Virus record (IMG/VR): IMGVR_UViG_2915597211_000007
Coordinates: 4,560-68,559 of that record
Strand: one strand, 5' to 3'
Length of the DNA stretch: 64,000 bases
Source of the DNA: a virus
Taxonomy: Duplodnaviria > Caudoviricetes
In this document: piece by piece, positions 1 to 64,000 of the stretch
Position numbering within the stretch: the first letter of the stretch is position 1
Layout of the letters: each line of letters starts with the position of its first letter
Position numbers and translations under genes: made by a program
The notes under the pieces: model-generated
What the model was told of the DNA's origin: nothing
The model's database searches: none
Seen by the model: only the letters and a program-made list of their open reading frames with translations

Positions 1-92
1 AACGTGTTCTCATACGTGTGATTGACGAGTGCTGCGACATGTTCCGGTAGTATGAAACCCTTGCCGATTGGATTATTAATTTTTATCGACAT
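1..92 (-). CDS. YolD-like protein, N-terminal part (runs off the window)
   Basis: Manual translation MSIKINNPIGKGFILPEHVAALVNHTYENT; GGAGGGG SD; LPEH motif; typical post-lysis position with an upstream SOS box. Confidence 0.6.
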   Translation of the reverse strand, partial: MSIKINNPIGKGFILPEHVAALVNHTYENT

Positions 93-116
93 GTATTTGT
101 ACCCCTCCGTTATTAC

Positions 117-130
117 CGAACGTTCGTTCC
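117..130. promoter_or_regulatory. LexA/DinR SOS box
   Basis: CGAACGTTCGTTCC fits GAAC-N4-GTTC and lies just downstream of the -10 box of the YolD-like promoter. Confidence 0.75.
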
Positions 131-133
131 TGT

Positions 134-162
134 ATTATGCGCTTACTCCCCGAAATTTTCAA
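134..162 (-). promoter_or_regulatory. SigA-type promoter of the YolD-like gene
   Basis: Minus strand TTGAAA-N17-CATAAT. Confidence 0.6.
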
Positions 163-343
163 TAGGGATTCCGTTCCCTCCGAAAATTTTCCGTACCCGA
201 ACGTAAACAGGTACGGGCAATTCCGGAAATATAAACGCGATCCTGCCGTCTGACATTGAACGTATCTCATACGGAATGCACCGACCGTCGAGCTCGCGGC
301 GGATGGCGGCGGCATCGCGCCAGGGTACAGTGAAATAGAACAC
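143..343 (-). CDS. Small hypothetical protein (66 aa)
   Basis: ORF with AAGGAG SD; no recognised family. Confidence 0.55.
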   Translation of the reverse strand: MFYFTVPWRDAAAIRRELDGRCIPYEIRSMSDGRIAFIFPELPVPVYVRVRKIFGGNGIPIENFGE

Positions 344-393
344 GGAAAATCACGCTCCTTTCGATGAGGTTAGCGTACCACTCCGATTTGGGA

Positions 394-442
394 CAAAAAA
401 ATAACGCCCACCTAACGGACGTAAAATCCGATAAGTGGGCGT
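394..442 (-). terminator. Intrinsic terminator closing the lysis operon and peptide gene
   Basis: ACGCCCAC...GTGGGCGT stem followed by TATTTTTTT on the minus strand. Confidence 0.8.
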
Positions 443-452
443 ATATATTCGA

Positions 453-614
453 TTATCCTACAAGCGATCCAGTTTCGATTGGTCCGAGGTTTCGCATTCC
501 GGTTTCAATCGGACCGTGTACGGACGCTCCCGTTTCGATAGGACCTGCATAAGCTGCTGTCGCTACTGCCATAACCACCACAAAAATTACAAATCCAAAA
601 ATGACCTTTTTCAT
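453..614 (-). CDS. Secreted signalling propeptide with three tandem GPIETG hexapeptides (53 aa)
   Basis: Manual translation MKKVIFGFVIFVVVMAVATAAYA-GPIETG-ASVH-GPIETG-MRNL-GPIETG-SLVG; AAGGAGG SD; Sec signal ending AYA; synonymous codons differ between copies. Confidence 0.9.
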   Translation of the reverse strand: MKKVIFGFVIFVVVMAVATAAYAGPIETGASVHGPIETGMRNLGPIETGSLVG

Positions 615-666
615 ACGTAAATTCCTCCTTAGTGTATTATTACAAGTGTACTGTGCGCGGAAAATA

Positions 667-948
667 TCAGACTTCGTATTTCTCCGTCTTAACTTCTGGT
701 TGCTTCACGCTATCATCCGCAGGCTTCGGACGTACGTAACTGTACGCGCCCGCTGCCGTTAATCCGACGACCGCCGTCGTAAGAATTCCGTCCTTAATCG
801 CGCCATCCGGTGCAAATACGAATAGCGCAGCGAACAACATCGCCGCCACTGGCGCAAACTTACCGGACATGCCGAGTCCTTTCGCTACTCCCGTCAATGC
901 GGCCACAATCGCAGCCAGCGTTGCAATATCGTAAGTGATCGTTTCCAT
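667..948 (-). CDS. Holin
   Basis: 93 aa, three hydrophobic segments, charged C-terminus, adjacent to the endolysin. Confidence 0.8.
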   Translation of the reverse strand: METITYDIATLAAIVAALTGVAKGLGMSGKFAPVAAMLFAALFVFAPDGAIKDGILTTAVVGLTAAGAYSYVRPKPADDSVKQPEVKTEKYEV

Positions 949-2141
949 TAGCGTTTCCCTCCGATATATTTAATCGCGTTCAATACAACGGTCAGCACGA
1001 ACCAGACCGTTGCAGATTCGTTCAGACGCGCCGACCAGTCAGACGTAATCAGACCGAGTGCTCGCGCCTCATCGTGCGCCTTCCGTTTCCACTCTTCGAT
1101 CACAGGCGGCTCCTCCTTCGGAATCTTTCGTAATCCATACGTTTTCTCTAGTCCTCCAACGATTGCGCGCGCCACCTTATCACGGTAGACGTCCGATTTG
1201 AGTAGCGCAGCCTCTTCGCGGTTCGTCATAAATCCGCATTCGCAGAGAATTGCGGTCATTTCCGATTTGCGCAGAACGTAAAAGTCCGCCTGTTTGACTC
1301 CACGATTACGCTGTCCCGTGTGCGCGATAAGCGAAGCCTGTATGTTTGCAGCAAGCTTCCGAGTCGCCTCGTCTGCGGTCGTATACACAAACGTTGTGAT
1401 CCCGTTCGCCTCGTACCAGTCGCCTGGTCCCGCCGCGTCTGCGTGAATAGAAACGTAGACATCCGCGCACCATTTATTCGCGCGGTCAGTCCGTTCACCT
1501 AACGGAACGTCCCGTCCGTCTTCGTGAACGAAAAGCACCGAAACGCCTTCGTAATCTGCGAGGAGATCACGGACACGCTTCGCAACCGCGGAGTTAAAAT
1601 GATACTCGCGCATGCTTCCGTCAGGCGTACGTTTGCCAGGCGTATCCGGTCCGTGTCCTGCGTCAATCGCTACTTTTAACGCCACTTTCCGAGTCACCTC
1701 CGCGTCATATTCGTATAGTCGATATTGCTCGATAACCTTCGTTAACTTTGCGGTATAATTTGGGTCAGTCGCGTAACCAGCCCGCGCTATCTCTGCGCAA
1801 GCCGTCCGCCAGTCTGCGCCGATAACGTTGTGGTAACGCGGTTTCAGTAGGAATTCAGAGTGGTCACGGATAGACTCGTCCCAATCGGTATATTTGCGGA
1901 AGGCTGAACGTTTTTCAGTCCGGACACCATTTACGTACTCGTCCGATACCTTTTCGTAACTGCCCGCTGGTCCTATACCTTTGATTCCGAACAGTGCGTT
2001 CGCACTGACCGCGAGTTCGGACGTACCAGACTTCGATTCTACGATTGCCTGCGCGAGTGTTAGCGATGCGGGCACGCCTGTCCGCCTGTGTTCGTCAACG
2101 GCTATTGGCGCGATTCTTGCGATGAAATCCGTAGTGCTCAT
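948..2141 (-). CDS. Endolysin: GH73 glucosaminidase plus Amidase_3
   Basis: TLAQAIVES...NALFGIKG and GYATDPNY (GH73); IDAGHG, SIHAD and ILCECGFMTN (zinc amidase). Confidence 0.92.
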   Translation of the reverse strand: MSTTDFIARIAPIAVDEHRRTGVPASLTLAQAIVESKSGTSELAVSANALFGIKGIGPAGSYEKVSDEYVNGVRTEKRSAFRKYTDWDESIRDHSEFLLKPRYHNVIGADWRTACAEIARAGYATDPNYTAKLTKVIEQYRLYEYDAEVTRKVALKVAIDAGHGPDTPGKRTPDGSMREYHFNSAVAKRVRDLLADYEGVSVLFVHEDGRDVPLGERTDRANKWCADVYVSIHADAAGPGDWYEANGITTFVYTTADEATRKLAANIQASLIAHTGQRNRGVKQADFYVLRKSEMTAILCECGFMTNREEAALLKSDVYRDKVARAIVGGLEKTYGLRKIPKEEPPVIEEWKRKAHDEARALGLITSDWSARLNESATVWFVLTVVLNAIKYIGGKR

Positions 2142-2145
2142 CGCG

Positions 2146-2337
2146 TCACCTCAGCTTCTCTTTAATTTCGCGAATCTCTCCGATAACAAGATCGTATTTT
2201 TCTGAGAATTTCTCGAGCAGCTCGTTCAGCCGCGTCTCCCTATCGCGTGACTCGCGTTTGGTCGAAATCAACAACCAAACGAAAAGGACCGCGAACGGCC
2301 CTTGCGTTAGAAAGTACTTGAGTACATCAATTTCCAT
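2146..2337 (-). CDS. bhlA: BhlA/UviB-family holin-like peptide
   Basis: MEIDVLKYFLTQGPFAVLFVWLL signature. Confidence 0.85.
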   Translation of the reverse strand: MEIDVLKYFLTQGPFAVLFVWLLISTKRESRDRETRLNELLEKFSEKYDLVIGEIREIKEKLR

Positions 2338-2341
2338 TCGT

Positions 2342-2491
2342 TTACACCGCCTCGTCAGCACAAGTAATATCGGCCAGTTGCGGAAGCTCTAGTTGTCGAA
2401 GCTGCGTCCGTACGTCCTCGCGAATGGTTTTCGGCACATCACAGATCGTTTTGTATCCGCGAACAATCAACGTTGTATAAATCGTTACCAT
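2342..2491 (-). CDS. XkdX/CD1375-like small protein
   Basis: MVTIYTTLIVRGYKTICDVPKTIREDV; probable ATG at 2491. Confidence 0.7.
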   Translation of the reverse strand: MVTIYTTLIVRGYKTICDVPKTIREDVRTQLRQLELPQLADITCADEAV

Positions 2492-2547
2492 TTCCGATCG
2501 ACCTCCGATAAGTTTGAGTAATAGAAAAAGCGCCACCGTCCGCAGAA

Positions 2548-2658
2548 TCATCGCTGATCCTCGTCCAATAGCGCCTGTACTGCCGCTCTATCCGATTGTG
2601 GTACGTCATCGATCGTTTTCAATCCGCGAACAATTAGTCGGTAGTAAACCGTAGGCAT
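2548..2658 (-). CDS. XkdX/CD1375-like small protein, second paralogue (36 aa)
   Basis: Manual translation MPTVYYRLIVRGLKTIDDVPQSDRAAVQALLDEDQR; not in the ORF track. Confidence 0.7.
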   Translation of the reverse strand: MPTVYYRLIVRGLKTIDDVPQSDRAAVQALLDEDQR

Positions 2659-2849
2659 TACGCTGCACCTCCCGTTTTGCTTGCGAGGAGCTCTTCGTAC
2701 ACTTGCGTTAGAGCAAGCATGAGGTCGACATTCTCCTGTTCGAGCTGCGTTATTTTTTCACGGTCAGTCAGTGGACGCTCGCCAGGGTTTACGTCAGTTA
2801 ACGGACCGAATCGGTCTCCGGGTAATCGCGGTCTAAGTTGTGGCATCAT
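2658..2849 (-). CDS. Small tail-region protein (XkdW-like)
   Basis: Coupled stop/start with neighbours; C-terminal LEQENVDLMLALTQVYEEL. Confidence 0.6.
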   Translation of the reverse strand: MMPQLRPRLPGDRFGPLTDVNPGERPLTDREKITQLEQENVDLMLALTQVYEELLASKTGGAA

Positions 2850-4978
2850 CCGATCCCTCCCATTATCTTCTTGATGGCCTTTGTCGATGCGGGGTCAGCG
2901 CGAGTCAGCGTCAATTTCAGCGTTACCTTTGCGCCAGCCGGTGTCGCAGTCCCTACGAACTCATCTTCGTAAATAGTTCCGTCCCCAATCGGCACGCTCG
3001 CATTCTTCGTCATCGCCACGAAAGACTCGGCGGCATTACTCGCTACAATCGAACGCGCTGCGGCAACGGTCAGGTCGCCAGCCTCACGGTTGATCCACGT
3101 GACTATTTCCGCCGTCGTGCCGAGTGGTGGCGTGATCGTATACCGGACGACCGCCGTCTTGACTGGCGTTTGTGTTCCGGACTTTACGAACGTGAGCGTT
3201 TTTGTCTTTGCGGCACCTTTCGTATCAGTCGCGGTAAATACCACTTTGTTTGTACCGTTGGCGAGCGCAGACACAGGAACCACGTACTCGAACGTCGTAC
3301 CGGAAGGGACTCCGGCCTTTAACGGAACTGGCTCGCCACCATTGAACGCGACCGTAAGGTTAACGTTATCGTTCTCCGGGTCCGATACGGTTCCAGTGAA
3401 AACCAGCGTCTCCAATTCGGACAAGCCTGTTCGGTTCGCGTTGTATGCGTCCAGCACGATATTCGGCGGACGGTTAAGAATGACCTTGAATGAGCGTGTA
3501 TATGACGTAGAGGTTCCGCCTTGATCGTCAACCGCGTATGCATTGACGGTATACGTCGTATTCTCTGCGAGTGGTCCGGACACGTCCGTTGCGCCATCGT
3601 AGAGGCGTCCGTTTTGGAACGTCAAGACATTTGAGAACGGAATCGGTGAGACTCCGTCAGAGATTGCAGACGTGATGTTGCGGGCGGTTCCGCCATTGAT
3701 CGCGTATCTTACGGTGACTGCGTTGCCACTGTCGGGGTCGGACGCGGTGCCTGCGAGTGCGTACGTTGCGCCTTCCGTCAATGTTTGATTATCGGAAGGT
3801 GAAGTTAGCGAGAGAGTTGGCGGGTTATTTGTTTTTGGGACGAGAACAAGCGAACGGGAAGCGCCCGGTGCTGCTGAAACGGTTGTAGTAGTCATATCGC
3901 TTGATGTCTGACTTTTATTTGTGTACATGTATCTGAAAGACATCTCAAGTGCATATGAGTTACCGTAAATATCCAATATTTCTCTATAGTTTAATGGGCT
4001 TGTGCTTGAAACCTGACTAACAAAGCCATTTAGTAAAATAAACACCGTTTTATCGTGTGTTGTCGCGGTATTGGGCGGTGCGATTGTTTGTGAGGCTGTC
4101 GATGTAGTCGTGACTTGGCTAGTGTCAATCTGTTTTACATTCCTGAAACAAGTCATGTATGCAAGCCAGTTAACATTTCCGGCTGTATTGGTGAATACAG
4201 GAGGTGTTTCTGTAGCAGAAGCATATTTATAGTACACAGCGAATCTACTTCCAAACGCTACATCGTCAGCTAATTTTGTCCAACTGGAAGGTGTGGTCCC
4301 CAAGGTTCCCGATGTTGCTATGTGTGCTATTAATAAATCACCCAGTTGGTATCCTGTGGGTAGATTTAGTGTAATACTCGAGATTGAGGAAGAGTTGTTG
4401 GTTGTACCTGCCCCAACAAAATCCACTTGCTTTTTGCCTGTTGTCGGGATGGAGTAGTCGATGGTGAGGGTTGGGCGTCTCGCTTCCGTTGAAGCTTCCT
4501 TGGAGCCTACAGATCGTTGAGTATTTGTTCCGACCTCATCTATGTCTTTCAACAGAAAACCGAAGTTCGGACTGCCATTTACCCATTCTTGGACAATTGT
4601 TTTCACATCGACCTGGACAGACGCATCTGCGCTCAATGATGGGAATGATGCTTTTGGAGTTGATTCGAAAGTTGGTTGGTTATTCCAGTTTGTATTCTGA
4701 TCCCACGCACTTGTAATCTTGTGGATGCTTGTTTGTCTGGACACTGCATTTCCAACGTTATACAAATAAAGAGTGGCACTGTTAATGACCGCATTGTTTG
4801 GAATAAGGCCCAGGTCAAAAATCAGCAAGGCCCTTAATTTATCATTCAACCCAGCACTTCCATTACCCCATTGCAGGCTATCGGCGGTACCGTAAGATGA
4901 CGTTGGTGACGCTTGAACAATAAATGTATCTGAAATGGACGTGTTCAATCGTTCTAGTTTAACTACGGGCATGCGCAT
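2846..4978 (-). CDS. Tail fibre/receptor-binding protein with N-terminal DNRLRE (CBM96-like) domain and Ig-like repeats
   Basis: DTFIVQASPTSSYG...RALLIFDL..IP.NAVINSATLYLY; two N.PP-initiated Ig-like modules; position after the baseplate genes. Confidence 0.7.
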   Translation of the reverse strand: MRMPVVKLERLNTSISDTFIVQASPTSSYGTADSLQWGNGSAGLNDKLRALLIFDLGLIPNNAVINSATLYLYNVGNAVSRQTSIHKITSAWDQNTNWNNQPTFESTPKASFPSLSADASVQVDVKTIVQEWVNGSPNFGFLLKDIDEVGTNTQRSVGSKEASTEARRPTLTIDYSIPTTGKKQVDFVGAGTTNNSSSISSITLNLPTGYQLGDLLIAHIATSGTLGTTPSSWTKLADDVAFGSRFAVYYKYASATETPPVFTNTAGNVNWLAYMTCFRNVKQIDTSQVTTTSTASQTIAPPNTATTHDKTVFILLNGFVSQVSSTSPLNYREILDIYGNSYALEMSFRYMYTNKSQTSSDMTTTTVSAAPGASRSLVLVPKTNNPPTLSLTSPSDNQTLTEGATYALAGTASDPDSGNAVTVRYAINGGTARNITSAISDGVSPIPFSNVLTFQNGRLYDGATDVSGPLAENTTYTVNAYAVDDQGGTSTSYTRSFKVILNRPPNIVLDAYNANRTGLSELETLVFTGTVSDPENDNVNLTVAFNGGEPVPLKAGVPSGTTFEYVVPVSALANGTNKVVFTATDTKGAAKTKTLTFVKSGTQTPVKTAVVRYTITPPLGTTAEIVTWINREAGDLTVAAARSIVASNAAESFVAMTKNASVPIGDGTIYEDEFVGTATPAGAKVTLKLTLTRADPASTKAIKKIMGGIG

Positions 4979-28213: not shown

Positions 28214-29454
28214 TAGGCGGGCACCTCCGTTCTGTCGGCTCCCGATTCTGCCGCCTCCCTTTCCGCATGGCCTTTGGCGCGACCATCCGGATTATCCGAA
28301 ATCAAACGCTCGCCTATTGCGTTCGATTGCGTAGCCGCCCGTAATTGCTCCGCCAGCGCGACTCCGAGCAGGTATGAGACGCGCGATGCGACTCCGTTAC
28401 CGACGATGCGGTATTGTGGCGAAAGTTTAATATCGTCAGGAATTACGTACCAGTCCGGTACAGATTGGATGCGGAGGCACTCGCGCACGGTGAAACGGCG
28501 TGGTGCTTGCGTTGGATGAATTGGTTGTCCGTTATTGTGATGCGCAGGGATAGTGGCGGATGGAGGCTCCATCCGTTGGACACGGCTTGCCTGATCCCAT
28601 TTTTCAGAATCCCCACTCTTTGGCGGCCAATAGTGCTTATCGGTGTGATTCCGGACAATCTCCATCGTCATAGAGCCGTCGCCTGGATGAATTGAAGTGT
28701 CTCTAGGACTTGTTAAAACTGTGAATGCTGGTTTGTCCCATTTGACGACTCTATTCCGAGACAAATACTGACTAGAGTAGCTCCCATCCTGCGGGTTACG
28801 CTCGTGAAAGTAGGGCTCCGGTAAATCCCCGATCACATCGCGCAGCACTTGCGTACGACAATCCTCCGGTTGCGGCTCCGGAAACTCGAACGCGAATCCG
28901 AGGTCATTCCGCACGCCTACGATAAACACACGCTCCCTTTTCTGCGCGACACCGTAGTCCCATGCGTTGACCAACCGCCAACTTACCGTATACCCAATCG
29001 TGGCGAACCGTTCGAGTAGCGCATCAAACGTCGGTCGGTGCTTCTTCGTAATGAGTCCCTTTACGTTTTCGAATACGAGTGCCTTCGGACGCTTCCGTTC
29101 GATGATTTCGAGATAGCGCCATACGAGTTTGCCGCGCTCGCCTTCTTCGCCAGCACCCGTTCCCGCAACGCTGTAGTCCTGGCACGGCGGACCCCCGGCA
29201 ATTACGTCCGCGTCCGGAATGGAATCGATATCGATCGCGGTAATGTCGCCATGTACGATGTGGTCGCCGAGGTTGTGGCGGTATGCCTTCACCGCGTTCT
29301 TATCGAAATCATTCGCCCATTTCAGCGTGTACCCGGCAGAGCGGAGGCCGACCGCCATCAGTCCGCCGCCTGCGAATAGCTCCGCGACAGTGACTCCGTT
29401 ACTTTCGAGTTGAGGCGTTACGTTATATGTCATGACATCGCTCCTTTTCGTCAA
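28213..29454 (-). CDS. DNA cytosine-5 methyltransferase
   Basis: ELFAGGG, GGPPCQ, ENV, QKRERVF, RECLRIQS and YRIVGNGV motifs. Confidence 0.95.
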   Translation of the reverse strand: MTKRSDVMTYNVTPQLESNGVTVAELFAGGGLMAVGLRSAGYTLKWANDFDKNAVKAYRHNLGDHIVHGDITAIDIDSIPDADVIAGGPPCQDYSVAGTGAGEEGERGKLVWRYLEIIERKRPKALVFENVKGLITKKHRPTFDALLERFATIGYTVSWRLVNAWDYGVAQKRERVFIVGVRNDLGFAFEFPEPQPEDCRTQVLRDVIGDLPEPYFHERNPQDGSYSSQYLSRNRVVKWDKPAFTVLTSPRDTSIHPGDGSMTMEIVRNHTDKHYWPPKSGDSEKWDQASRVQRMEPPSATIPAHHNNGQPIHPTQAPRRFTVRECLRIQSVPDWYVIPDDIKLSPQYRIVGNGVASRVSYLLGVALAEQLRAATQSNAIGERLISDNPDGRAKGHAEREAAESGADRTEVPA

Positions 29455-30703: not shown

Positions 30704-31272
30704 TACGCATCGCTCCCCTTCGCCATAATCTCCGCCATCACCGCGTCCACCTTCGCATGTAACTCCGCCAGGCTTCCGTTATTCACAATCTCGTAATCGA
30801 CCGCGAACCCGTCCGAATGCAGCTCGGTTTCGTGCGTTAAGTCGCGTTCGTCGAACGTATCGCCTGCGTCAAGCATGCGTTGCCTACGGGTCGCCTCGTC
30901 ACACTTTACGCGGATGACTACGAAGCCTTCCGCACGAAGGCGGGAAATTTCGTTAGGCTGACGGAGGTCGGTGATTACGATGTTGTCGAAGTCTTTGTAG
31001 TATGGCGTGAAGTACAGTAGGGTTCGAATATCGCGCATGGTCGCGTTGACCCATACGTCCGGATCGAACACCCTCATCGCCTGCCCCACGCCTTGTAGGA
31101 GCGCGCGGGGCTTTCGGTCATTGGCGAATCGTTCCGGAAAGAGTTCGGAGCAGACTTTGCGGATACCGTCGCCGAATGCGAACCGGACGAATCCGTATTG
31201 TTGCGTGAGGTGGGCGGCCGCGGCGTCCTTCCCTGCACGAGCCCGCGCCGTGAGCGCTATTTTAACGCTCAT
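30703..31272 (-). CDS. Deoxynucleoside monophosphate kinase-like P-loop protein
   Basis: IALTARARAGKD, FAFGDGIR, ITDLRQPNE and HETE motifs. Confidence 0.8.
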   Translation of the reverse strand: MSVKIALTARARAGKDAAAAHLTQQYGFVRFAFGDGIRKVCSELFPERFANDRKPRALLQGVGQAMRVFDPDVWVNATMRDIRTLLYFTPYYKDFDNIVITDLRQPNEISRLRAEGFVVIRVKCDEATRRQRMLDAGDTFDERDLTHETELHSDGFAVDYEIVNNGSLAELHAKVDAVMAEIMAKGSDA

Positions 31273-32495: not shown

Positions 32496-32605
32496 CCGAT
32501 CACCCTCCGATATTTTTTAGTTTGCGGATCGTCCGTCATGCGATCGCCTATTTCGCACGACTGCGCCTTACTTAGTAATTCGTACGCGATTCCGTTTTGC
32601 ACATC

Positions 32606-47400: not shown

Positions 47401-47567
47401 GCGAGTCTCACCGCCTTAACCGTCATCCGACGAGACAAGTAATCGGCTGCGTCTTCGTCCGGTTGGAATCCGTCGTCGTATTCGTGGATGGTTCGGCCAG
47501 TTGCGTTATATTCGTATGGAAAGCGTGTATACTTCGTTTGGTTATTGCGTACAATATCGTATGGCAT
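47397..47567 (-). CDS. Small hypothetical protein (56 aa)
   Basis: MPYDIVRNNQTKYTRFPYEYN...; GAGGTG SD; ATGA-coupled to the next gene. Confidence 0.6.
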   Translation of the reverse strand: MPYDIVRNNQTKYTRFPYEYNATGRTIHEYDDGFQPDEDAADYLSRRMTVKAVRLA

Positions 47568-47796
47568 CGTTATCACCTCGTGTAGTTTGCATAAATTTCG
47601 TATAATTTCCGTTGGTTAGCGCAACAATGTCCTTGACAAGGCAGTCCCAAAATTAGTAATATGTGATCGAAGTTATCTGACTTATAAAACGTCTTTTACT
47701 TAGACTATTTATTGTATTAAACTAATGACTTCGGATATAATTGTAGCGAGGTCGAGACTATGACGTATTGCCTAAACGCCATAGCCCGATCGTACA

Positions 47797-48414
47797 TCAT
47801 ACCGTGTAATAATTGCGTTGGTCCCCGAAACGATTGGCGTCGTATCTACGTGACAAATAGCGCAATTTATTCTTCACGGTTTTGTCAGACAATCCGAGCG
47901 ATTTGGCGATCGCGACGAAAGGTTGTCCGGCAAGAAACAATTTGACAACTTTACATGTGATGTCATCGGTTCCGGTGACGAGAAAAGAGAGTAGTTCCCG
48001 CTGCTCTCTTTTCTTTTGTACCTCCACTACCATACCTTCGACATTTCCAGTGAGAGAGAGACTCTCGTCCTCGACTTGAGATATTGGCGTATCTCCATCG
48101 TCAGGCGCGATATCTAATGTGCAATCTTCTCGAACTCTTGCTCGATTACGTCTCAAGTCCCTGATCCTGTTTCGAATACTTCTAGTGAGGAAGTTTTCAA
48201 AGTTCCCGATTGACGGGTCAAACTTATCGAGCGCATCCATTAATGTCTGATCGTAAACAGCCTGTACATCATGTTGTCCAGTGCGTGTAAACCGCTCGTC
48301 ATTTCGTCGTTTGGCTGGCGTCCATCCAACGCTGACTATTCGGTATATTTCCTCGAAAACCTCTTCGTTTCGTGAAGCCTGATAACTGACGACTAACTCG
48401 TTTATCCCGTTCAC
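47797..48414 (-). CDS. Phage RNA polymerase sigma factor (sigma-70 family, compact)
   Basis: Region 2 DALDKFDPSIGNFENFLTRSIRNRIRD; region 4 FVAIAKSLGLSDKTVKNKL. Confidence 0.88.
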   Translation of the reverse strand: MNGINELVVSYQASRNEEVFEEIYRIVSVGWTPAKRRNDERFTRTGQHDVQAVYDQTLMDALDKFDPSIGNFENFLTRSIRNRIRDLRRNRARVREDCTLDIAPDDGDTPISQVEDESLSLTGNVEGMVVEVQKKREQRELLSFLVTGTDDITCKVVKLFLAGQPFVAIAKSLGLSDKTVKNKLRYLSRRYDANRFGDQRNYYTV

Positions 48415-48433
48415 TTTTCGTCCTCCTTTGTCC

Positions 48434-48471
48434 TACACTTAGTTATACGCCGCAAATCAGTAGCCTCGGAA
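48434..48471 (-). promoter_or_regulatory. Conserved promoter-like motif, copy 1 (upstream of the sigma gene)
   Basis: TTCCGAGGCT-N10-GGCGTATAACTAAGTGTA; near-identical copy at 62659-62697. Confidence 0.65.
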
Positions 48472-48499
48472 AAGATTCGGAAGATTTTTCATAAAATAG

Positions 48500-48538
48500 T
48501 TTGGATGAACAGATTAAATCATTTTTAACACATCCAAA
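48500..48538. promoter_or_regulatory. Long-spaced inverted repeat, candidate RRNPP receptor operator
   Basis: TTTGGATG-N23-CATCCAAA between the propeptide terminator and the sigma gene. Confidence 0.5.
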
Positions 48539-48713
48539 ATATACGACTACCGATCCGGCATGATTAAATACTAACATTTAGGAATTTAGAAATCAGTACT
48601 GTATTGTCGTAATAATTTTGATTTTTTATTGCAAAAAATAACTTTTTCCCGATAATTCGACACTAACAACCTTATAACGACACAAATTAGATGGATACTG
48701 TTGTCTTTTAAAC

Positions 48714-48743
48714 AAAAAAAACCTGCGAAACTAAGTTCGCAGG
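48714..48743 (-). terminator. Intrinsic terminator after the receptor-propeptide operon
   Basis: CCTGCGAA-N6-TTCGCAGG-TTTTTTTT. Confidence 0.88.
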
Positions 48744-48786
48744 GAAGCTCCACACACTTTCAATTATTAGTGTTAACCACTTCGAA

Positions 48787-48906
48787 TTACATTAGAGAAT
48801 TTTCAACGGCAGCTTGTCCAGTTTCGATCGGTCCTGTTGGTTCGAGGATTATAGGGACAGATACTAAAAGTACTATGGCAACAAAAATTGTGAGTAATTT
48901 TTTCAC
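48787..48906 (-). CDS. Cognate secreted propeptide (AimP-like) containing GPIETG (39 aa)
   Basis: Manual translation MKKLLTIFVAIVLLVSVPIILEPT-GPIETG-QAAVENSLM; GGAGG SD and GTG start 17 nt after the receptor stop. Confidence 0.9.
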   Translation of the reverse strand: MKKLLTIFVAIVLLVSVPIILEPTGPIETGQAAVENSLM

Positions 48907-48922
48907 AAAAACGCACCTCCGT

Positions 48923-50227
48923 TCAATTATAGTAGCTCTCTAATAACTCGATTTCTGCTTTTTCTTCGTCAGTAACAAGGTGCCCGTACTTTGTTAGAAC
49001 TTTGATAAATAGAAGTGCCACGGTCACTAACTCATCATTTAATTGCTTGCCTCGTAATAATCTACAGCTTTCTAAAAGGTTAGTAATGATTTCTCGCGGA
49101 TCACCTCCAGTCGACAGTAGTATCGCAGCGACGTTTCTTTTGTGAAGTGCAACTTCATTCATAAATCTTATCGGGCACTCTTCGGATTGATTTAATTTCT
49201 CTACTAGTCGATTAGTTTCCTCTACTAGAAGTTGGGCTTTAACAATATCTCCACTTTGATATTCCATGAAAGCAAAGTCTGTTAAAATATTTAATCTCCC
49301 TAAATCATCTTTTGGCATTTCAGAAAGAACTAATTCCCAATTATCTCTTGCTTGGGAAAATTCTTTACTCAACCAAAGCGCTCTTGCCATACTAGCCTTA
49401 CTGTCTATCTGAATAGCACTCCCCAATTCCGAAAGCTCGTAACACTCCTGATACATTTCAAGTGCTTTATTGAAATTTTTCAACTGGCAATATATATGCC
49501 CAAGAGTGTTATGTAATCTCCATTTATCGTTTGAACTTGCGCCTGCACAGATTTTCCTCGCGGCTGCTCCAATTTCAACGCCCTTTGTATAGTTCCTTGT
49601 AAAATAACAACACATCATAAACTCAAGGAGCACCGTAAAACGTTGATTTAAATTTTTAAACTCATATCTTGATGTTATTTTCTTAAAGAGAGTTAATGCA
49701 ATTTGAAAGTTACGTTCATCTCGAGAAAATTTGTAAAACAAATCCAATTCTTCGAATACTTCTTTTTTTGATATTAAATCTAGTTGTAATGCTACAAAAT
49801 CGACCATCTTTTCGTGTCCCACGGTTTCGTTTATTGCAACCATTATCTTTAGTAGTAGTAACATTGATTTCATGTAGTAAAACTCTTTAGTCTTAGTATT
49901 AGTTGTTCGCTTAGCCAGTCGAAGAATTTTATAGATGACTAGTCTAGTGGAGTCATAATCTCTGATACTGAAAAAATGTAGAGCAAGTTCAAACAGTTCA
50001 TGCTTGTCATCTTGTGCTCGGAGGTACAAATCTCGAGACTCGAGAATGCTGAATTTGAGAATATCGGATAACAGAATTAGTGTTTCTGTTTTGGGAACGG
50101 TGTAGTTACGCTCAATAGATGCGTAATGACTTTTATTCATTCGTCTAGTGATTTCCACATCTTCTTGTTTAAGTCGCTTTATAACCCTTTTGTTCCGGAG
50201 AAAAAAACCTAGTGTTAAGGTAGTCAC
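48923..50227 (-). CDS. RRNPP-family peptide receptor (XRE-HTH plus TPR; arbitrium AimR-like role)
   Basis: N-terminal LGFFLRNKR...LKQEDV...HYASIERNYTVP HTH; TPR helices (LHNTLGHIYCQLKNFNKALEMYQECYE); adjacent propeptide; probable GTG at 50227 (track 50296). Confidence 0.88.
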   Translation of the reverse strand: MTTLTLGFFLRNKRVIKRLKQEDVEITRRMNKSHYASIERNYTVPKTETLILLSDILKFSILESRDLYLRAQDDKHELFELALHFFSIRDYDSTRLVIYKILRLAKRTTNTKTKEFYYMKSMLLLLKIMVAINETVGHEKMVDFVALQLDLISKKEVFEELDLFYKFSRDERNFQIALTLFKKITSRYEFKNLNQRFTVLLEFMMCCYFTRNYTKGVEIGAAARKICAGASSNDKWRLHNTLGHIYCQLKNFNKALEMYQECYELSELGSAIQIDSKASMARALWLSKEFSQARDNWELVLSEMPKDDLGRLNILTDFAFMEYQSGDIVKAQLLVEETNRLVEKLNQSEECPIRFMNEVALHKRNVAAILLSTGGDPREIITNLLESCRLLRGKQLNDELVTVALLFIKVLTKYGHLVTDEEKAEIELLESYYN

Positions 50228-50270
50228 TAACAATTTCCCCCATTCAGTATATCTTGGTGTCAATATCATA

Positions 50271-50288
50271 ATTCCTATATTTAGGAAT
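50271..50288. promoter_or_regulatory. Palindromic operator candidate in the divergent receptor/cro intergenic region
   Basis: ATTCCTA-TATT-TAGGAAT; ATTCCTATATTT repeated at 50343; ATTTAGGAAT also at 48576. Confidence 0.5.
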
Positions 50289-50412
50289 GTCAACATTAAT
50301 GAATGTGCATATTCAAAAATATAAAAATTTATACAAATTGGTATTCCTATATTTCCAAACAGGAATTTCTAAGATATAATTAAACTTAGTCCTACTATAG
50401 GAGGTTCTTATA

Positions 50413-50625
50413 ATGATCTTAAAGGTTAGGTTAAAAGAGGTATTGGAAGAACGTGGGCTGACACAGAAAGAGTTGTCTGCACTCACAGGTCTAAGGGAAA
50501 ACACAATATCAGAGCTGTCCAATAATATTCGTCAATCAATTAATGTAAAATACATTGGTATAATCGCAAAGAAATTGAACATTACCAATGTAAATGAAAT
50601 CTTATACTTTGAAGAAGACAGATAG
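50413..50625 (+). CDS. Cro/C1-type HTH regulator
   Basis: LKEVLEERGLTQKELSALTGLRENTISEL; divergent from the receptor; upstream TATAAT and GGAGG. Confidence 0.9.
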   Translation: MILKVRLKEVLEERGLTQKELSALTGLRENTISELSNNIRQSINVKYIGIIAKKLNITNVNEILYFEEDR

Positions 50626-51624
50626 TCTCACATGTCTAGCTTTATTTATATAAGCATCAACCAGTATTTTATCCTCGATGTCGTTCGGGTCCTTGTATCG
50701 CATCGGATACCCTGCGACCCTCACGTTCATATATGGCGCAAGCAACTCGATCGCCTTCCGCTTAAACTTCTGTCCCGCAGCGTCGTGATCCGCCATTATT
50801 ACGATTTCCTCTAGCGGACTCTTCCGGATAATCTCTGCTTTCTCTTCGGTGAACGCCGAGCTTCCGTTCGCAATCGCGTAACCTCCCGCCGTCATCACGT
50901 ACATTGCATCAATTTCCGCCTCCATGATAACCGCGCGGCGCACATTCTCTCGGTAGATCATGTTCATCCCGTAAATCATTTCGCGGATTGGCCGTCCGCC
51001 CTTCACGTACCAAAACGTTTTTTCTGCTATCCTCCGGAACTTTACGTTTCCTAGCGTCCCATCCGGTAAAAACCACGGAATGGTTATCGCACGCGACCGG
51101 CTACAATATCCCACACCCATCTTCCTCTGCACTTCCGGACTAATACCGCGCGACTCTAGGTACGGATGCCGTCGGTCGTACTCGCGTAAGATGTCCGCGT
51201 TAAGCGCCTGCCTACAGCGCTCAAGGCGGAGTGTATTCGAGAGGTCTAGCGTTAAGGCTTCTGGATCAGCTACGTAATCGCCGCCGTACTTGCAGTAAAG
51301 ATATTCGCGAGTCTCTTCCGTTGTCTCTTGGCGTAGAAACGAAAGTAGGCTAACGATGCCACCACGTGCGAATTTCTGGTCAGAAGAACCAGGGTCACCC
51401 CACGAACCGGCTTTTGCCGTTGGCGTATCCGTGAGATAGACGTAGAATGACGGAGTTCGGTCGAATCGGAACGGGCTGGCTGCGGTGAGTTTATCGTGGG
51501 CCCAGGTCGCGCGTTCCCAAATAAAATTTTCGAGTTCCTCTCTGACATCCACGTTCAAAGAATCCACATAACCACTCCATTCCCAACAATTTGAAATGTT
51601 AAACACTTTTTGATTAAACTGCAA
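50602..51624 (-). CDS. DNA primase (TOPRIM)
   Basis: YLESRGIS, VKFRRI, IMEAEIDAM and IMADHDAAG motifs; real start probably the GTG near 51568. Confidence 0.88.
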   Translation of the reverse strand: MQFNQKVFNISNCWEWSGYVDSLNVDVREELENFIWERATWAHDKLTAASPFRFDRTPSFYVYLTDTPTAKAGSWGDPGSSDQKFARGGIVSLLSFLRQETTEETREYLYCKYGGDYVADPEALTLDLSNTLRLERCRQALNADILREYDRRHPYLESRGISPEVQRKMGVGYCSRSRAITIPWFLPDGTLGNVKFRRIAEKTFWYVKGGRPIREMIYGMNMIYRENVRRAVIMEAEIDAMYVMTAGGYAIANGSSAFTEEKAEIIRKSPLEEIVIMADHDAAGQKFKRKAIELLAPYMNVRVAGYPMRYKDPNDIEDKILVDAYINKARHVRLSVFFKV

Positions 51625-62658: not shown

Positions 62659-62697
62659 TACACTTAGATATACGCCAGAAAAAGAGAGCCTCGGAAT
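62659..62697 (-). promoter_or_regulatory. Conserved promoter-like motif, copy 2 (start of the early operon)
   Basis: TTCCGAGGCT-N11-GGCGTATATCTAAGTGTA, immediately after the integrase-operon terminator. Confidence 0.65.
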
Positions 62698-62744: not shown

Positions 62745-62954
62745 TTACCCACCGTAAATGTATCGCTCAACTCCGTTCACAATCCGCCCGCCAATTGTCT
62801 GCGTATACTCACGTCCGAACTCGTCTCTAACGTAGAGAACAAATCGCGGATTCTCGGGATTTATCGGAACAATACGGTCGACTCGGACGCCTTCCGCGAT
62901 TCTGCGGTTGATTTCGGCGGTCAGGCGTGGAAAGTTCGGGATAGGATCGATCAT
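62745..62954 (-). CDS. Small protein coupled to the integrase (possible recombination directionality factor)
   Basis: 69 aa; TAATG overlap with the integrase stop; function inferred from position only. Confidence 0.55.
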   Translation of the reverse strand: MIDPIPNFPRLTAEINRRIAEGVRVDRIVPINPENPRFVLYVRDEFGREYTQTIGGRIVNGVERYIYGG

Positions 62955-64000
62955 TAACGTAACACCTTCCGTTCTTTGTTGAGCTTACCCATTACCTCAT
63001 TCAACGGCGAATATTGCTCGTGTTGATTCTTAATCGAAGCTTTTGATAGGTGAGTATACCGCATGACCATCCGCAAATCGGAGTGACCGAGTATCAATTG
63101 AAGATGACGCAAATCCCCGCCAGCTTCTAAAAACATCGTTGCAGCGGTATGGCGAAACAAGTGCGGATGTACTCGAATGGGAATTTCCGCCAGTTTTGCG
63201 TATTCTTTCAGTCGGTGGCGAAATTGCCCGTCGCATAGTGGCTCGCCGTAATTTGCTAGAAAAACATAATCGTTATCGAAATCCTCATTTTCACGCAATA
63301 AGTCTTGTATCAGCTTTAGCGTCTGTTTCTTCAACGGTACTGCCCGAGATTTCCGATTCTTTGACTGTTCTGCACGAATATTTACCATACCGAGGTCAAA
63401 GTCGATGTCTGATCGTCGTAACGACAAAGCTTCATTTATACGAAGAAATCCGTCAAGAAGTACGTTCATTACTACGTAGTCGCGAAACCCGCTGTACCTA
63501 CGTTGATTGGGCGCAGCCAAGAGTTTCTTTAACTGATCTACTGACATTATATGAATCTCATTGTCGTCTTCCTCGACTTTCTTAACACTATTAAACGGAT
63601 TAGTTTCGATCAGTTCTTCTTCCGCAAGATACCTAAACATCGTCCGCATCGTTTTTAATCGCGTATTTACAGAAGATGCTGTTATCCCCACGGTCTGCTC
63701 CGCCTCTGACTTAAACTTGTGCCCGTCAAACCGAACCTTCTCGTTTAGATTCCATACGATATATTCGCGTATAAAGTCCGGAGTCACAAGCCGCACATCT
63801 CGCCCATATCCGCGTAAATCCATGTATGTTACGAAGAAACCGTAATTTTCCCGGTAACTCTCGAGTGTACGCTCCTTTCTCCCCTCCGCTACTTTCGCGT
63901 GATAGAACCGTTCGAATAACGCATCTAGCGAGTGATCGGACGCGACCGAAAATCTTTCCGTCTTTTGTCGCCGTCCCTTACGCTTGTCCATTGCGCCCAT
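62954..64000 (-). CDS. Tyrosine integrase/recombinase
   Basis: RD...LLDGFLRINEAL, HPHLFRHT and LGHSDLRMVMRY catalytic residues. Confidence 0.95.
   Translation of the reverse strand: MGAMDKRKGRRQKTERFSVASDHSLDALFERFYHAKVAEGRKERTLESYRENYGFFVTYMDLRGYGRDVRLVTPDFIREYIVWNLNEKVRFDGHKFKSEAEQTVGITASSVNTRLKTMRTMFRYLAEEELIETNPFNSVKKVEEDDNEIHIMSVDQLKKLLAAPNQRRYSGFRDYVVMNVLLDGFLRINEALSLRRSDIDFDLGMVNIRAEQSKNRKSRAVPLKKQTLKLIQDLLRENEDFDNDYVFLANYGEPLCDGQFRHRLKEYAKLAEIPIRVHPHLFRHTAATMFLEAGGDLRHLQLILGHSDLRMVMRYTHLSKASIKNQHEQYSPLNEVMGKLNKERKVLR

Follow-up and report, generated by a model that had tools for sequence, protein, structure and literature searches.

We report a candidate peptide communication module in a temperate phage. 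The window analysed here is the whole stretch of 64,000 nucleotides that covers bases 4560-68559 of virus record IMGVR_UViG_2915597211_000007, a provirus record of 68,559 bp; positions are those of the window unless stated otherwise. Between the replication genes and the other lytic genes, an RRNPP-type receptor, a small secreted propeptide and a phage sigma factor of the extracytoplasmic function (ECF)-like type lie in one exchangeable cassette. We propose, with moderate confidence, that the receptor without peptide acts on TGTCG repeats behind the propeptide gene and controls entry of transcription into the sigma gene, and that the hexapeptide GPIETG would alter this control. The original prediction, made from the letters of the window, described a receptor of about 434 amino acids with an XRE-type helix-turn-helix (HTH) and tetratricopeptide repeats (TPR), a 39-amino-acid secreted propeptide with an internal GPIETG, a terminator, an AT-rich spacer of about 300 bp and a sigma-70 gene in the position that aimX takes in arbitrium loci. 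All of these elements are present where they had been placed (Table 1), and the sigma gene is in addition part of the same exchangeable module.

Table 1. Features of the window that bear on the module
Feature	Position	Strand	Remarks
Satellite propeptide gene, 53 amino acids	453-614	-	Last gene of the lysis operon; three copies of GPIETG
Orphan propeptide gene, 30 amino acids	26230-26322	-	Signal peptide ...SSAFA, then DGGPGW and stop
Sigma-70/ECF-type sigma factor, 205 amino acids	47797-48414	-	Sigma70_r2, TIGR02937, PHROG sigma families
Spacer from terminator to sigma gene	48415-48721		308 bp, 33% GC
ECF-like promoter directly upstream of sigma gene	48434-48471	-	TTCCGA-N16-CGTATA, then CTAAGTGTA
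Inverted third TGTCG copy	48605-48613
TGTCG(T/A), two direct copies 20 bp apart	48682-48674 and 48662-48654	-	Candidate receptor operator facing the sigma gene
Intrinsic terminator of receptor/propeptide operon	48722-48743	-	8-bp G+C-rich stem, then T run
Cognate propeptide, 39 amino acids	48787-48906	-	GTG start; GPIETG encoded at 48817-48834
RRNPP-type receptor, 434 amino acids	48923-50227	-	N-terminal XRE HTH, then TPR superhelix
Near-consensus sigma-A promoter of receptor/propeptide operon	50265-50293	-	TTGACA-17-TATGAT, 11/12 positions
Perfect palindrome	50271-50288	.	ATTCCTA-N4-TAGGAAT, within the spacer of the receptor promoter
Promoter-like site of small XRE gene	50352-50380	+	TTTCCA-17-TATAAT, 10/12 consensus positions
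Small XRE-family regulator, 70 amino acids	50413-50625	+	HTH_3 36.7 bits, HTH_26 33.9 bits; PHROG repressor/regulator families
Second sigma-type promoter	62659-62696	-	Head of early (replication) operon, just after the integrase gene/terminator
Integrase	62954-64000		At one window end

Receptor and propeptide

The open reading frame (ORF) of the receptor is open over 48923-50296 on the minus strand. Translation most probably begins at the GTG at 50227, which stands behind GGGGGA and gives the 434-amino-acid protein, because the operon promoter lies within the longer ORF and the homologues start at this GTG. RRNPP(A) receptors are recognised as proteins of 250-500 amino acids with TPR repeats (PMC10075063); the receptor falls in this range and matches the Pfam families TPR_12 with 41 bits (cut-off 30.1) and TPR_2 with 31.4 bits (cut-off 27). 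In the transcription-factor subclass of these receptors, an N-terminal DNA-binding HTH is also expected. The HTH_3 match of the protein itself is weak (17.8 bits vs a cut-off of 23, E 0.0036); its aligned relatives P0003, P0004 and P0006 score above the cut-off, and the XRE HTH pattern is kept in nearly all relatives in the alignment. The AlphaFold2 model is confident (predicted local distance difference test score, pLDDT, 92.7) and all helical, with five N-terminal helices followed by a TPR superhelix.

The model was compared with solved structures. It matches LGN, a generic TPR protein (Z 21.0), Rap of phage phi105 (Z 20.8), RapI (Z 20.7), pLS20 Rap (Z 20.6), phAimR (Z 17.1), SPbeta AimR (Z 16.1) and NprR (Z 15.6), and its root-mean-square deviation from the phAimR and SPbeta AimR structures is 14-16 Å. 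Sequence search of solved structures and Foldseek rank generic TPR proteins first and give no subfamily placement, and no AimR-named family is among the Pfam, NCBIfam or PHROG matches of the receptor. The modelled fold places the receptor among the RRNPP proteins, not specifically in AimR. The locus had been called arbitrium-like. This description holds for the proposed function and for the layout only; AimR membership is not demonstrable, as Pfam and NCBIfam give no such match and Rap and generic TPR proteins align at least as well. Among 1.8 billion representatives, a full HMMER search found only about 20 relatives at E<1e-10; the top one is 28% identical, and those with a name come from Brevibacillus. 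A word-based protein search with the receptor returned only its own protein, and neither the module nor the receptor has a blastn or tblastn match among 50,697 phage records. The receptor belongs to a rare, uncharacterised family that is found mainly in Brevibacillus and has a Rap/NprR/AimR-like fold.

The propeptide ORF begins 16 bp past the receptor stop, with GGAGGTG 7 nt before its GTG start. It encodes MKK, an 18-residue hydrophobic stretch and then EPT-GPIETG-QAAVENSLM, so that GPIETG is internal, with 9 residues after it. It has what is expected of the partner of an RRNPP(A) receptor, namely an adjacent small ORF (10-100 amino acids) with a ribosome-binding site and a secretion signal, the latter judged by a simple heuristic. 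Taken as sequence evidence, these features support a real phage-borne pair of an RRNPP-type receptor and a propeptide. In RRNPP(A) systems the mature peptide binds the TPR groove and changes the activity of the receptor, and the same is predicted here.

The GPIETG signal

In the six-frame translation of the 68.6-kb record, GPIETG occurs four times, once in the adjacent propeptide and three times in a satellite propeptide gene, and nowhere else, which is far more than chance would give. The satellite protein has a signal peptide ending in AYA, an AxA signal-peptidase site, and continues as GPIETG ASVH GPIETG MRNL GPIETG SLVG. The four 18-nt copies differ in four of the six codons, always synonymously at third positions, and their flanking codons are unrelated. 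This indicates that the hexapeptide, rather than a repeat at the DNA level, is under selection; the codon pattern shows purifying selection on GPIETG. It had been predicted that the satellite identifies the hexapeptide as the signal, and these four copies bear this out. They support GPIETG as the conserved signal core of the module.

The satellite is an insertion of about 214 bp between the stop codon of the holin gene and a terminator that this phage has in common with its sister provirus G001. It lies upstream of the terminator of the lysis operon and would thus be transcribed together with the lysis genes. Propeptides beside relatives of the receptor are built alike, with other motifs: that of Brevibacillus laterosporus (locus L003) has two copies of NNGETG, that of L016 has GPYEPN and GPWEPN, and that of L015 has ...NGDAGGW. 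Internal and tandemly duplicated pheromones are known from phage Rap-Phr systems (PMC11343458); the internal position of GPIETG is therefore unusual, not unprecedented.

Exchange of the cassette between sister phages

Four sister proviruses were compared whole with this phage: G001 (66.8 kb), G002 (61.8 kb), G003 (72.4 kb; a prophage of Brevibacillus borstelensis AK1) and G004 (60 kb). The backbone proteins of G001 are 85-89% identical to those of this phage, and DNA homology to G001 is absent exactly over 47458-50681. The HTH gene, the receptor, the peptide and the sigma factor are therefore swapped as one block, like an immunity region. The alignments show a mosaic module, exchanged between the sister phages. 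GC content is 31-38% in the cassette vs 52-58% in its flanks; within the block, it is lowest in the receptor part (36%) and intermediate in the sigma gene (46%). The sigma orthologues by position in G001, G002, G003 and the phage locus L034 are 32-35% identical to that of this phage, and the flanking proteins 54-89%.

The interval between primase and sigma holds different genes in different phages. In G001, L034 and L035 it contains a divergent small HTH gene, a receptor of 426-441 amino acids (receptor B), a propeptide ending in N(D/E)GGPGW and a convergent second small HTH gene. G003 has a divergent small HTH gene and a receptor 28% identical to that of this phage, without a propeptide, and G002 and G004 have two small HTH genes and no receptor. 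Receptor B can be related to the family of the receptor studied here at profile level only (hhalign probability 95.6%, 16% identity). Altogether, five phages of the lineage (this phage, G001, G003, L034 and L035) have a receptor cassette in this interval. No propeptide was detected beside the G003 receptor or anywhere else in that 72-kb prophage, and the G003 receptor may be an orphan receptor that eavesdrops. One TGTCGA copy lies 14 bp past the stop codon of this receptor gene (L001 6001-7299), directly before sigma.

A candidate operator behind the terminator

All 4096 hexamers were scanned in forward orientation, up to 130 bp past the propeptide stop, or past the receptor stop where there is no propeptide, in seven independent loci of the receptor family. 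TGTCGA is the sole hexamer present in 7/7 loci (joint p ~1e-12, or ~6e-9 after Bonferroni correction). L034 and L035 have it too, which makes all nine family loci. It occurs mostly in 2-3 tandem copies right behind the terminator, facing the downstream gene. The loci that have TGTCGA in common encode receptors of 16-28% identity with non-homologous small HTH partners, and one of them, L017, has no small HTH gene. This spread makes the HTH of the receptor itself the best candidate to bind the hexamer. As a candidate operator, TGTCGA gives the strongest support that we have for regulation of the downstream gene.

Other readings of the spacer were not retained. Nothing in it scores above the Rfam threshold and its fold is not unusual (z = -1.3), and a riboswitch or small RNA was dropped on these grounds. 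The long-spaced inverted repeat TTTGGATG-N23-CATCCAAA (also written ATAGTTTGGATG-N23-CATCCAAAATAT) at 48496-48542, in the spacer before sigma, had been put forward as an AimR-like operator. It has no counterpart in the related loci, and we estimate that 1-2 such repeats are expected by chance per 400 AT-rich bases; this proposal was given up.

The sigma factor and its promoters

The sigma protein passes the cut-offs of Sigma70_r2 (30.8 bits, cut-off 24) and TIGR02937 (44.3, cut-off 42.9). Region 4 alone matches weakly (Sigma70_r4_2, E 0.037). With region 2 and region 4 domains it can be described as an ECF-like member of the sigma-70 family. The promoter directly upstream of its gene has its -35 and -10 boxes at N16, which is the geometry of ECF promoters. 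Written as TTCCGAGGCT-N10-GGCGTATAACTAAGTGTA, the same element recurs with one mismatch at the head of the early operon, and the two promoters have a 10-mer and an 18-mer (one mismatch) in common. No further promoter of the type TTCCGA-N16-CGTATA-CTAAGTGTA was found in the record beyond these two.

In G001, the equivalent sites at the early-operon head, at sigma and at a third site before the late region have GTGTGC at -35 and CGTCTA at -10, and GTGTGC stands at the same distance from the -10 box as TTCCGA does. L034, L035 and G003 also have a G001-like -35 box before sigma. Region 4 of the sigma factor reads ...HHETVKRK... in G001 and L034, HHSKVSRA in G003 and SDKTVKNK in this phage. Comparison of the sister phages shows that the -35 box co-varies with the region 4 helix (HH vs SD). 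This fits promoters that are read by the sigma factor of each phage itself, which would combine autoregulation with control of the early operon. We also considered TTCCGAGGCT as a receptor site; this is less likely than a -35 box, as the element lies 16 nt from a CGT-type -10 and co-varies with sigma region 4. Three promoters ending in CTAAGT are conserved in position, at the early-operon head, before sigma and before the late region. In this phage the first two have TTCCGAGGCT, and the third (~32540-32580, minus strand) has a GTGTGC-type -35 and a weakened -10 (CGAATT). Some 45 bp past the early promoter there is, in addition, a GTGTGC-N16-CGAATA relic.

The divergent XRE gene

In this region, only the gene for the 70-amino-acid XRE protein lies on the plus strand. 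It is transcribed away from the receptor gene and overlaps the primase gene at the latter's 3' end. It had been described as a divergent Cro-like gene. The divergent XRE gene is there, but its identity as Cro does not follow, since a maintenance repressor is at least as likely; we regard the protein as a candidate repressor. A small HTH gene accompanies the receptor in eight of the nine family loci, L017 being the exception, and is divergent from it in seven (this phage, G001, G003, L015, L016, L034 and L035). The left half of the perfect palindrome in the receptor promoter is repeated at 50343-50354 as ATTCCTATATTT, over the -35 box of the promoter-like site of the XRE gene. A 14/18 copy of the palindrome lies at 48567-48585, in the spacer before sigma, and ATTCCTAAAT with at most one mismatch has seven matches, five of them in the module. 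From its placement, the palindrome looks like an operator for autoregulation by the small XRE protein or the receptor.

Proposed mechanism and alternatives

We propose the following sequence of events. Host RNA polymerase with sigma-A would read the promoter at 50293-50265 and express the receptor and the propeptide. The peptide-free receptor would bind the TGTCG repeats past the terminator and control transcription from the spacer into the sigma gene. The sigma factor would then read its own promoter and that of the early operon, and this positive loop, suggested by the promoter sharing and the change of promoters together with region 4, would commit the phage to lytic growth. After extracellular processing and uptake into the cell, GPIETG would bind the TPR groove and release the receptor from DNA or alter its binding. 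At high density of phage or signal, by analogy with arbitrium, the sigma loop would not be ignited and the phage would become or stay lysogenic. The small XRE protein might autoregulate the module through the ATTCCTA-N4-TAGGAAT palindromes and help to silence it in lysogens. Late in productive infection, the satellite in the lysis operon would, judging from its position, boost the GPIETG signal.

Several observations weigh against this proposal. The sigma gene has a promoter of its own, and G002, G004 and Bacillus phage Mgbh1, which has a sigma-like gene, share the backbone without a receptor. These receptor-free backbones mean that sigma expression needs no such receptor, and together with the sigma promoter they leave the receptor at most the role of a modulator or primer of sigma. 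In this phage the -10 box downstream of the TGTCG repeats is weak (TATTTT). In G001, L034, L035 and L003, a convergent small HTH gene and not sigma follows TGTCGA, and transcription from the repeats would be antisense to it. Such an antisense arrangement has been proposed for arbitrium loci of Bacillus cereus-group phages. Members of the receptor family outside phages have other genes downstream, for example in L017, where the gene encodes a chemotaxis receptor, and in L015, where an unknown ORF follows. The third promoter of this phage, at ~32.5 kb, retains the G001-type -35 box, which a swap of sigma factors does not explain. Furthermore, DNA binding and regulation by the receptor are predictions from sequence, and the sign of the response, in which peptide favours lysogeny, is taken from the analogy with arbitrium only. 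Gating of sigma by receptor and peptide is a plausible inference, for which TGTCGA offers a concrete candidate operator.

The same observations can be read in another way. The module may sense a peptide without sigma as its target: the cassette would have landed at a hot spot of recombination between two operons. The receptor would act on a host function, or on no more than the divergent XRE gene and the operon that encodes the receptor, and nothing but the sigma promoter and the small HTH repressor or repressors would control sigma. The AT-rich island formed by the cassette agrees with this, as do the intermediate GC content of sigma, the promoter that sigma has in common with the early operon, the receptor-free relatives, the unrelated downstream genes outside phages and the perfect palindrome within the receptor's own promoter. 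However, five phages of the lineage have the receptor cassette in exactly the same place and orientation, the conserved TGTCGA lies past the terminator and faces downstream instead of lying in the promoter of the cassette, and sigma is within the same block of lost homology. We regard this reading as rather unlikely.

It is more doubtful that the receptor works chiefly through contacts with other proteins, in the manner of Rap. In that case, sigma or the small XRE repressor would be sequestered or inactivated by the receptor without peptide, whose HTH would serve autoregulation only. RappLS20 is an anti-repressor that acts on its repressor Rco (PMC7641744). Rap proteins, including pLS20 Rap and RapI, are the best structural matches of the TPR domain (Z 20.6-20.8), and a small HTH gene stands beside nearly every receptor; but LGN scores equally well, which makes this ranking non-discriminating, the XRE HTH is conserved in nearly all relatives of the receptor, and L017 has a receptor and TGTCGA without a small HTH gene. 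Least probable by far is an inactive prophage remnant in which the repeated hexapeptide has no signalling role. The G003 receptor has no detectable propeptide, which would suit a remnant. On the other hand, all ORFs are intact, with good ribosome-binding sites and a near-consensus promoter, the copies of GPIETG differ synonymously only, and the satellite is a recent and precise insertion in the lysis operon.

Signal genes outside the receptor locus

In addition to the satellite, this phage has an orphan propeptide gene, from whose product signal peptidase alone would free DGGPGW. The gene lies at the same backbone position in G001 (28363-28455), G002 (31097-31189) and G004, which makes it a conserved backbone gene in four of the five phages, and it is also recorded at L030 100-123. 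Its cleavage site and mature part show synonymous changes only, even against G002, where the flanks do not align. In G001 and L034 the propeptide beside receptor B ends in DGGPGW as well (NDGGPGW), and L035 has EGGPGW there (NEGGPGW). By this adjacency, DGGPGW is the predicted cognate signal of a different receptor, receptor B, in sister phages. Receptor B has no tblastn match in this record or in G002, G003 or G004, and three of the five phages encode DGGPGW without an evident matching receptor. The gene, apparently under purifying selection, is kept where the matching receptor seems to have been lost (G002 and G004) or replaced (this phage). The phages with the DGGPGW gene and no matching receptor look signal-only.

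The satellite and orphan genes indicate that this lineage repeatedly places an additional signal gene at a distance from the receptor. In phages without the matching receptor, DGGPGW may serve to manipulate sister phages, may act on a host receptor or may be a leftover. A broader and tentative idea, which we consider improbable as it stands, is that signal genes have been uncoupled from receptors. Some phages would broadcast a rival's DGGPGW signal that they cannot hear, pushing sister phages with the DGGPGW receptor to lysogeny or manipulating a host receptor. They would also report their own productive infections through late satellite genes, with the peptide-gated sigma loop as the decision device.

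The phage, its host and its relatives

The minus strand of the window carries nearly all helicase, primase, DNA polymerase, terminase, structural and lysis genes. The nearest public phages are distant; for example, the large terminase is 60% identical to that of Bacillus phage phBC6A51. A scan of genome contigs with a backbone protein gave one distant locus only. Judging from the relatives of this phage, Brevibacillus is probably its host. Among the 50,697 phage records, the sigma factor has a weak match to Bacillus phage Mgbh1 only. Mgbh1 (L027, KU665491.1, 36746-38869) is a cultured phage from a Lake Magadi source and has the backbone order of this phage. Its genes run from helicase and primase through two small opposite-strand genes, without a receptor, to gp52, which has sigma-like C-terminal similarity. 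These genes, the two small ones included, have no annotation beyond hypothetical. In bases 1-4559 of the record, which precede the window, the C-terminal half of a second tyrosine recombinase is encoded at 3281-3868 (plus strand), and near position 4000 of the record the translation resembles a tRNA T-arm. These bases may be host flank or an attachment region.

Comparison with known systems

To our knowledge, experimental proof of peptide communication by phages comes almost solely from arbitrium and from Rap-Phr in Bacillus. We rate as new the uncharacterised receptor family, the sigma factor in the effector position, the multi-copy signal gene in a late operon and the signal-only genes across the lineage. 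The module would add a second receptor family, unrelated in sequence and from another host genus, with the defined core GPIETG and the candidate operator TGTCGA. It links peptide sensing to a sigma factor that apparently autoregulates and drives the early operon, which would be a bistable loop and not an aimX-type effector. It can be said that the module is a testable case of phage-to-phage communication outside arbitrium. Furthermore, the signal genes outside the receptor locus bear on the question of crosstalk, eavesdropping and manipulation between phages (PMC13220667).

The arbitrium systems of SPbeta-like and other Bacillus phages resemble the module in several respects. They belong to temperate phages and consist of an HTH/TPR receptor, a secreted propeptide and a downstream gene; the signal is a hexapeptide, and sister phages differ in their signal and receptor alleles. 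The candidate operator described here likewise lies downstream of the propeptide gene. However, our receptor has no detectable AimR-family sequence membership, and its signal is internal or in tandem, whereas the arbitrium signal is the C-terminal six residues of AimP. GPIETG also differs from the xxxxGG/GA form of the arbitrium peptides. The downstream gene encodes a sigma factor, unlike aimX, the module includes a small XRE gene, and extra signal genes lie outside it.

NprR, AloR and AimR all show the architecture found here, HTH plus TPR with a propeptide downstream, and the likeness to AloR is by this architecture only. AloR-AloP of Paenibacillus polymyxa (PMC7425212) and the Paenibacillaceae clusters found by RRNPP_detector (PMC10075063) have a receptor of about 430 amino acids with HTH and TPR, followed by a propeptide of 32-56 amino acids with a signal sequence. 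Their mature peptides have six residues, and their hosts are in the same bacterial family group as the probable host of this phage. Such clusters occur on chromosomes, plasmids and phages (PMC7425212, PMC10075063). The Alo systems differ from the module in being chromosomal and in having no link to a sigma factor. GPIETG, NNGETG and DGGPGW are absent from the text and supplements of both papers, and no mention of the three was found in the literature searched, RRNPP_detector supplements included.

The phage Rap-Phr systems of phi3T and phi105 (PMC11343458) are also phage-borne, with the TPR fold (Rap of phi105 being one of the close structural matches), and have multi-copy propeptides that need two-sided cleavage. 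Rap proteins lack an HTH and act on host response regulators, whereas our receptor has an XRE HTH, and the multi-copy propeptide has here a gene to itself in the lysis operon, at a distance of 48 kb from that of the receptor. The closest parallel in wiring, as proposed here, is ComR-ComS(XIP)-SigX of streptococci (PMC6224593), in which an RRNPP receptor and its peptide gate an alternative sigma factor that drives a developmental programme. SigX has no homology to the phage sigma factor beyond the sigma-70 family. ComR-ComS-SigX is a bacterial competence circuit in which ComR is activated by its peptide, and in the phage module a peptide-free receptor would act on a sigma factor that opens the early operon.

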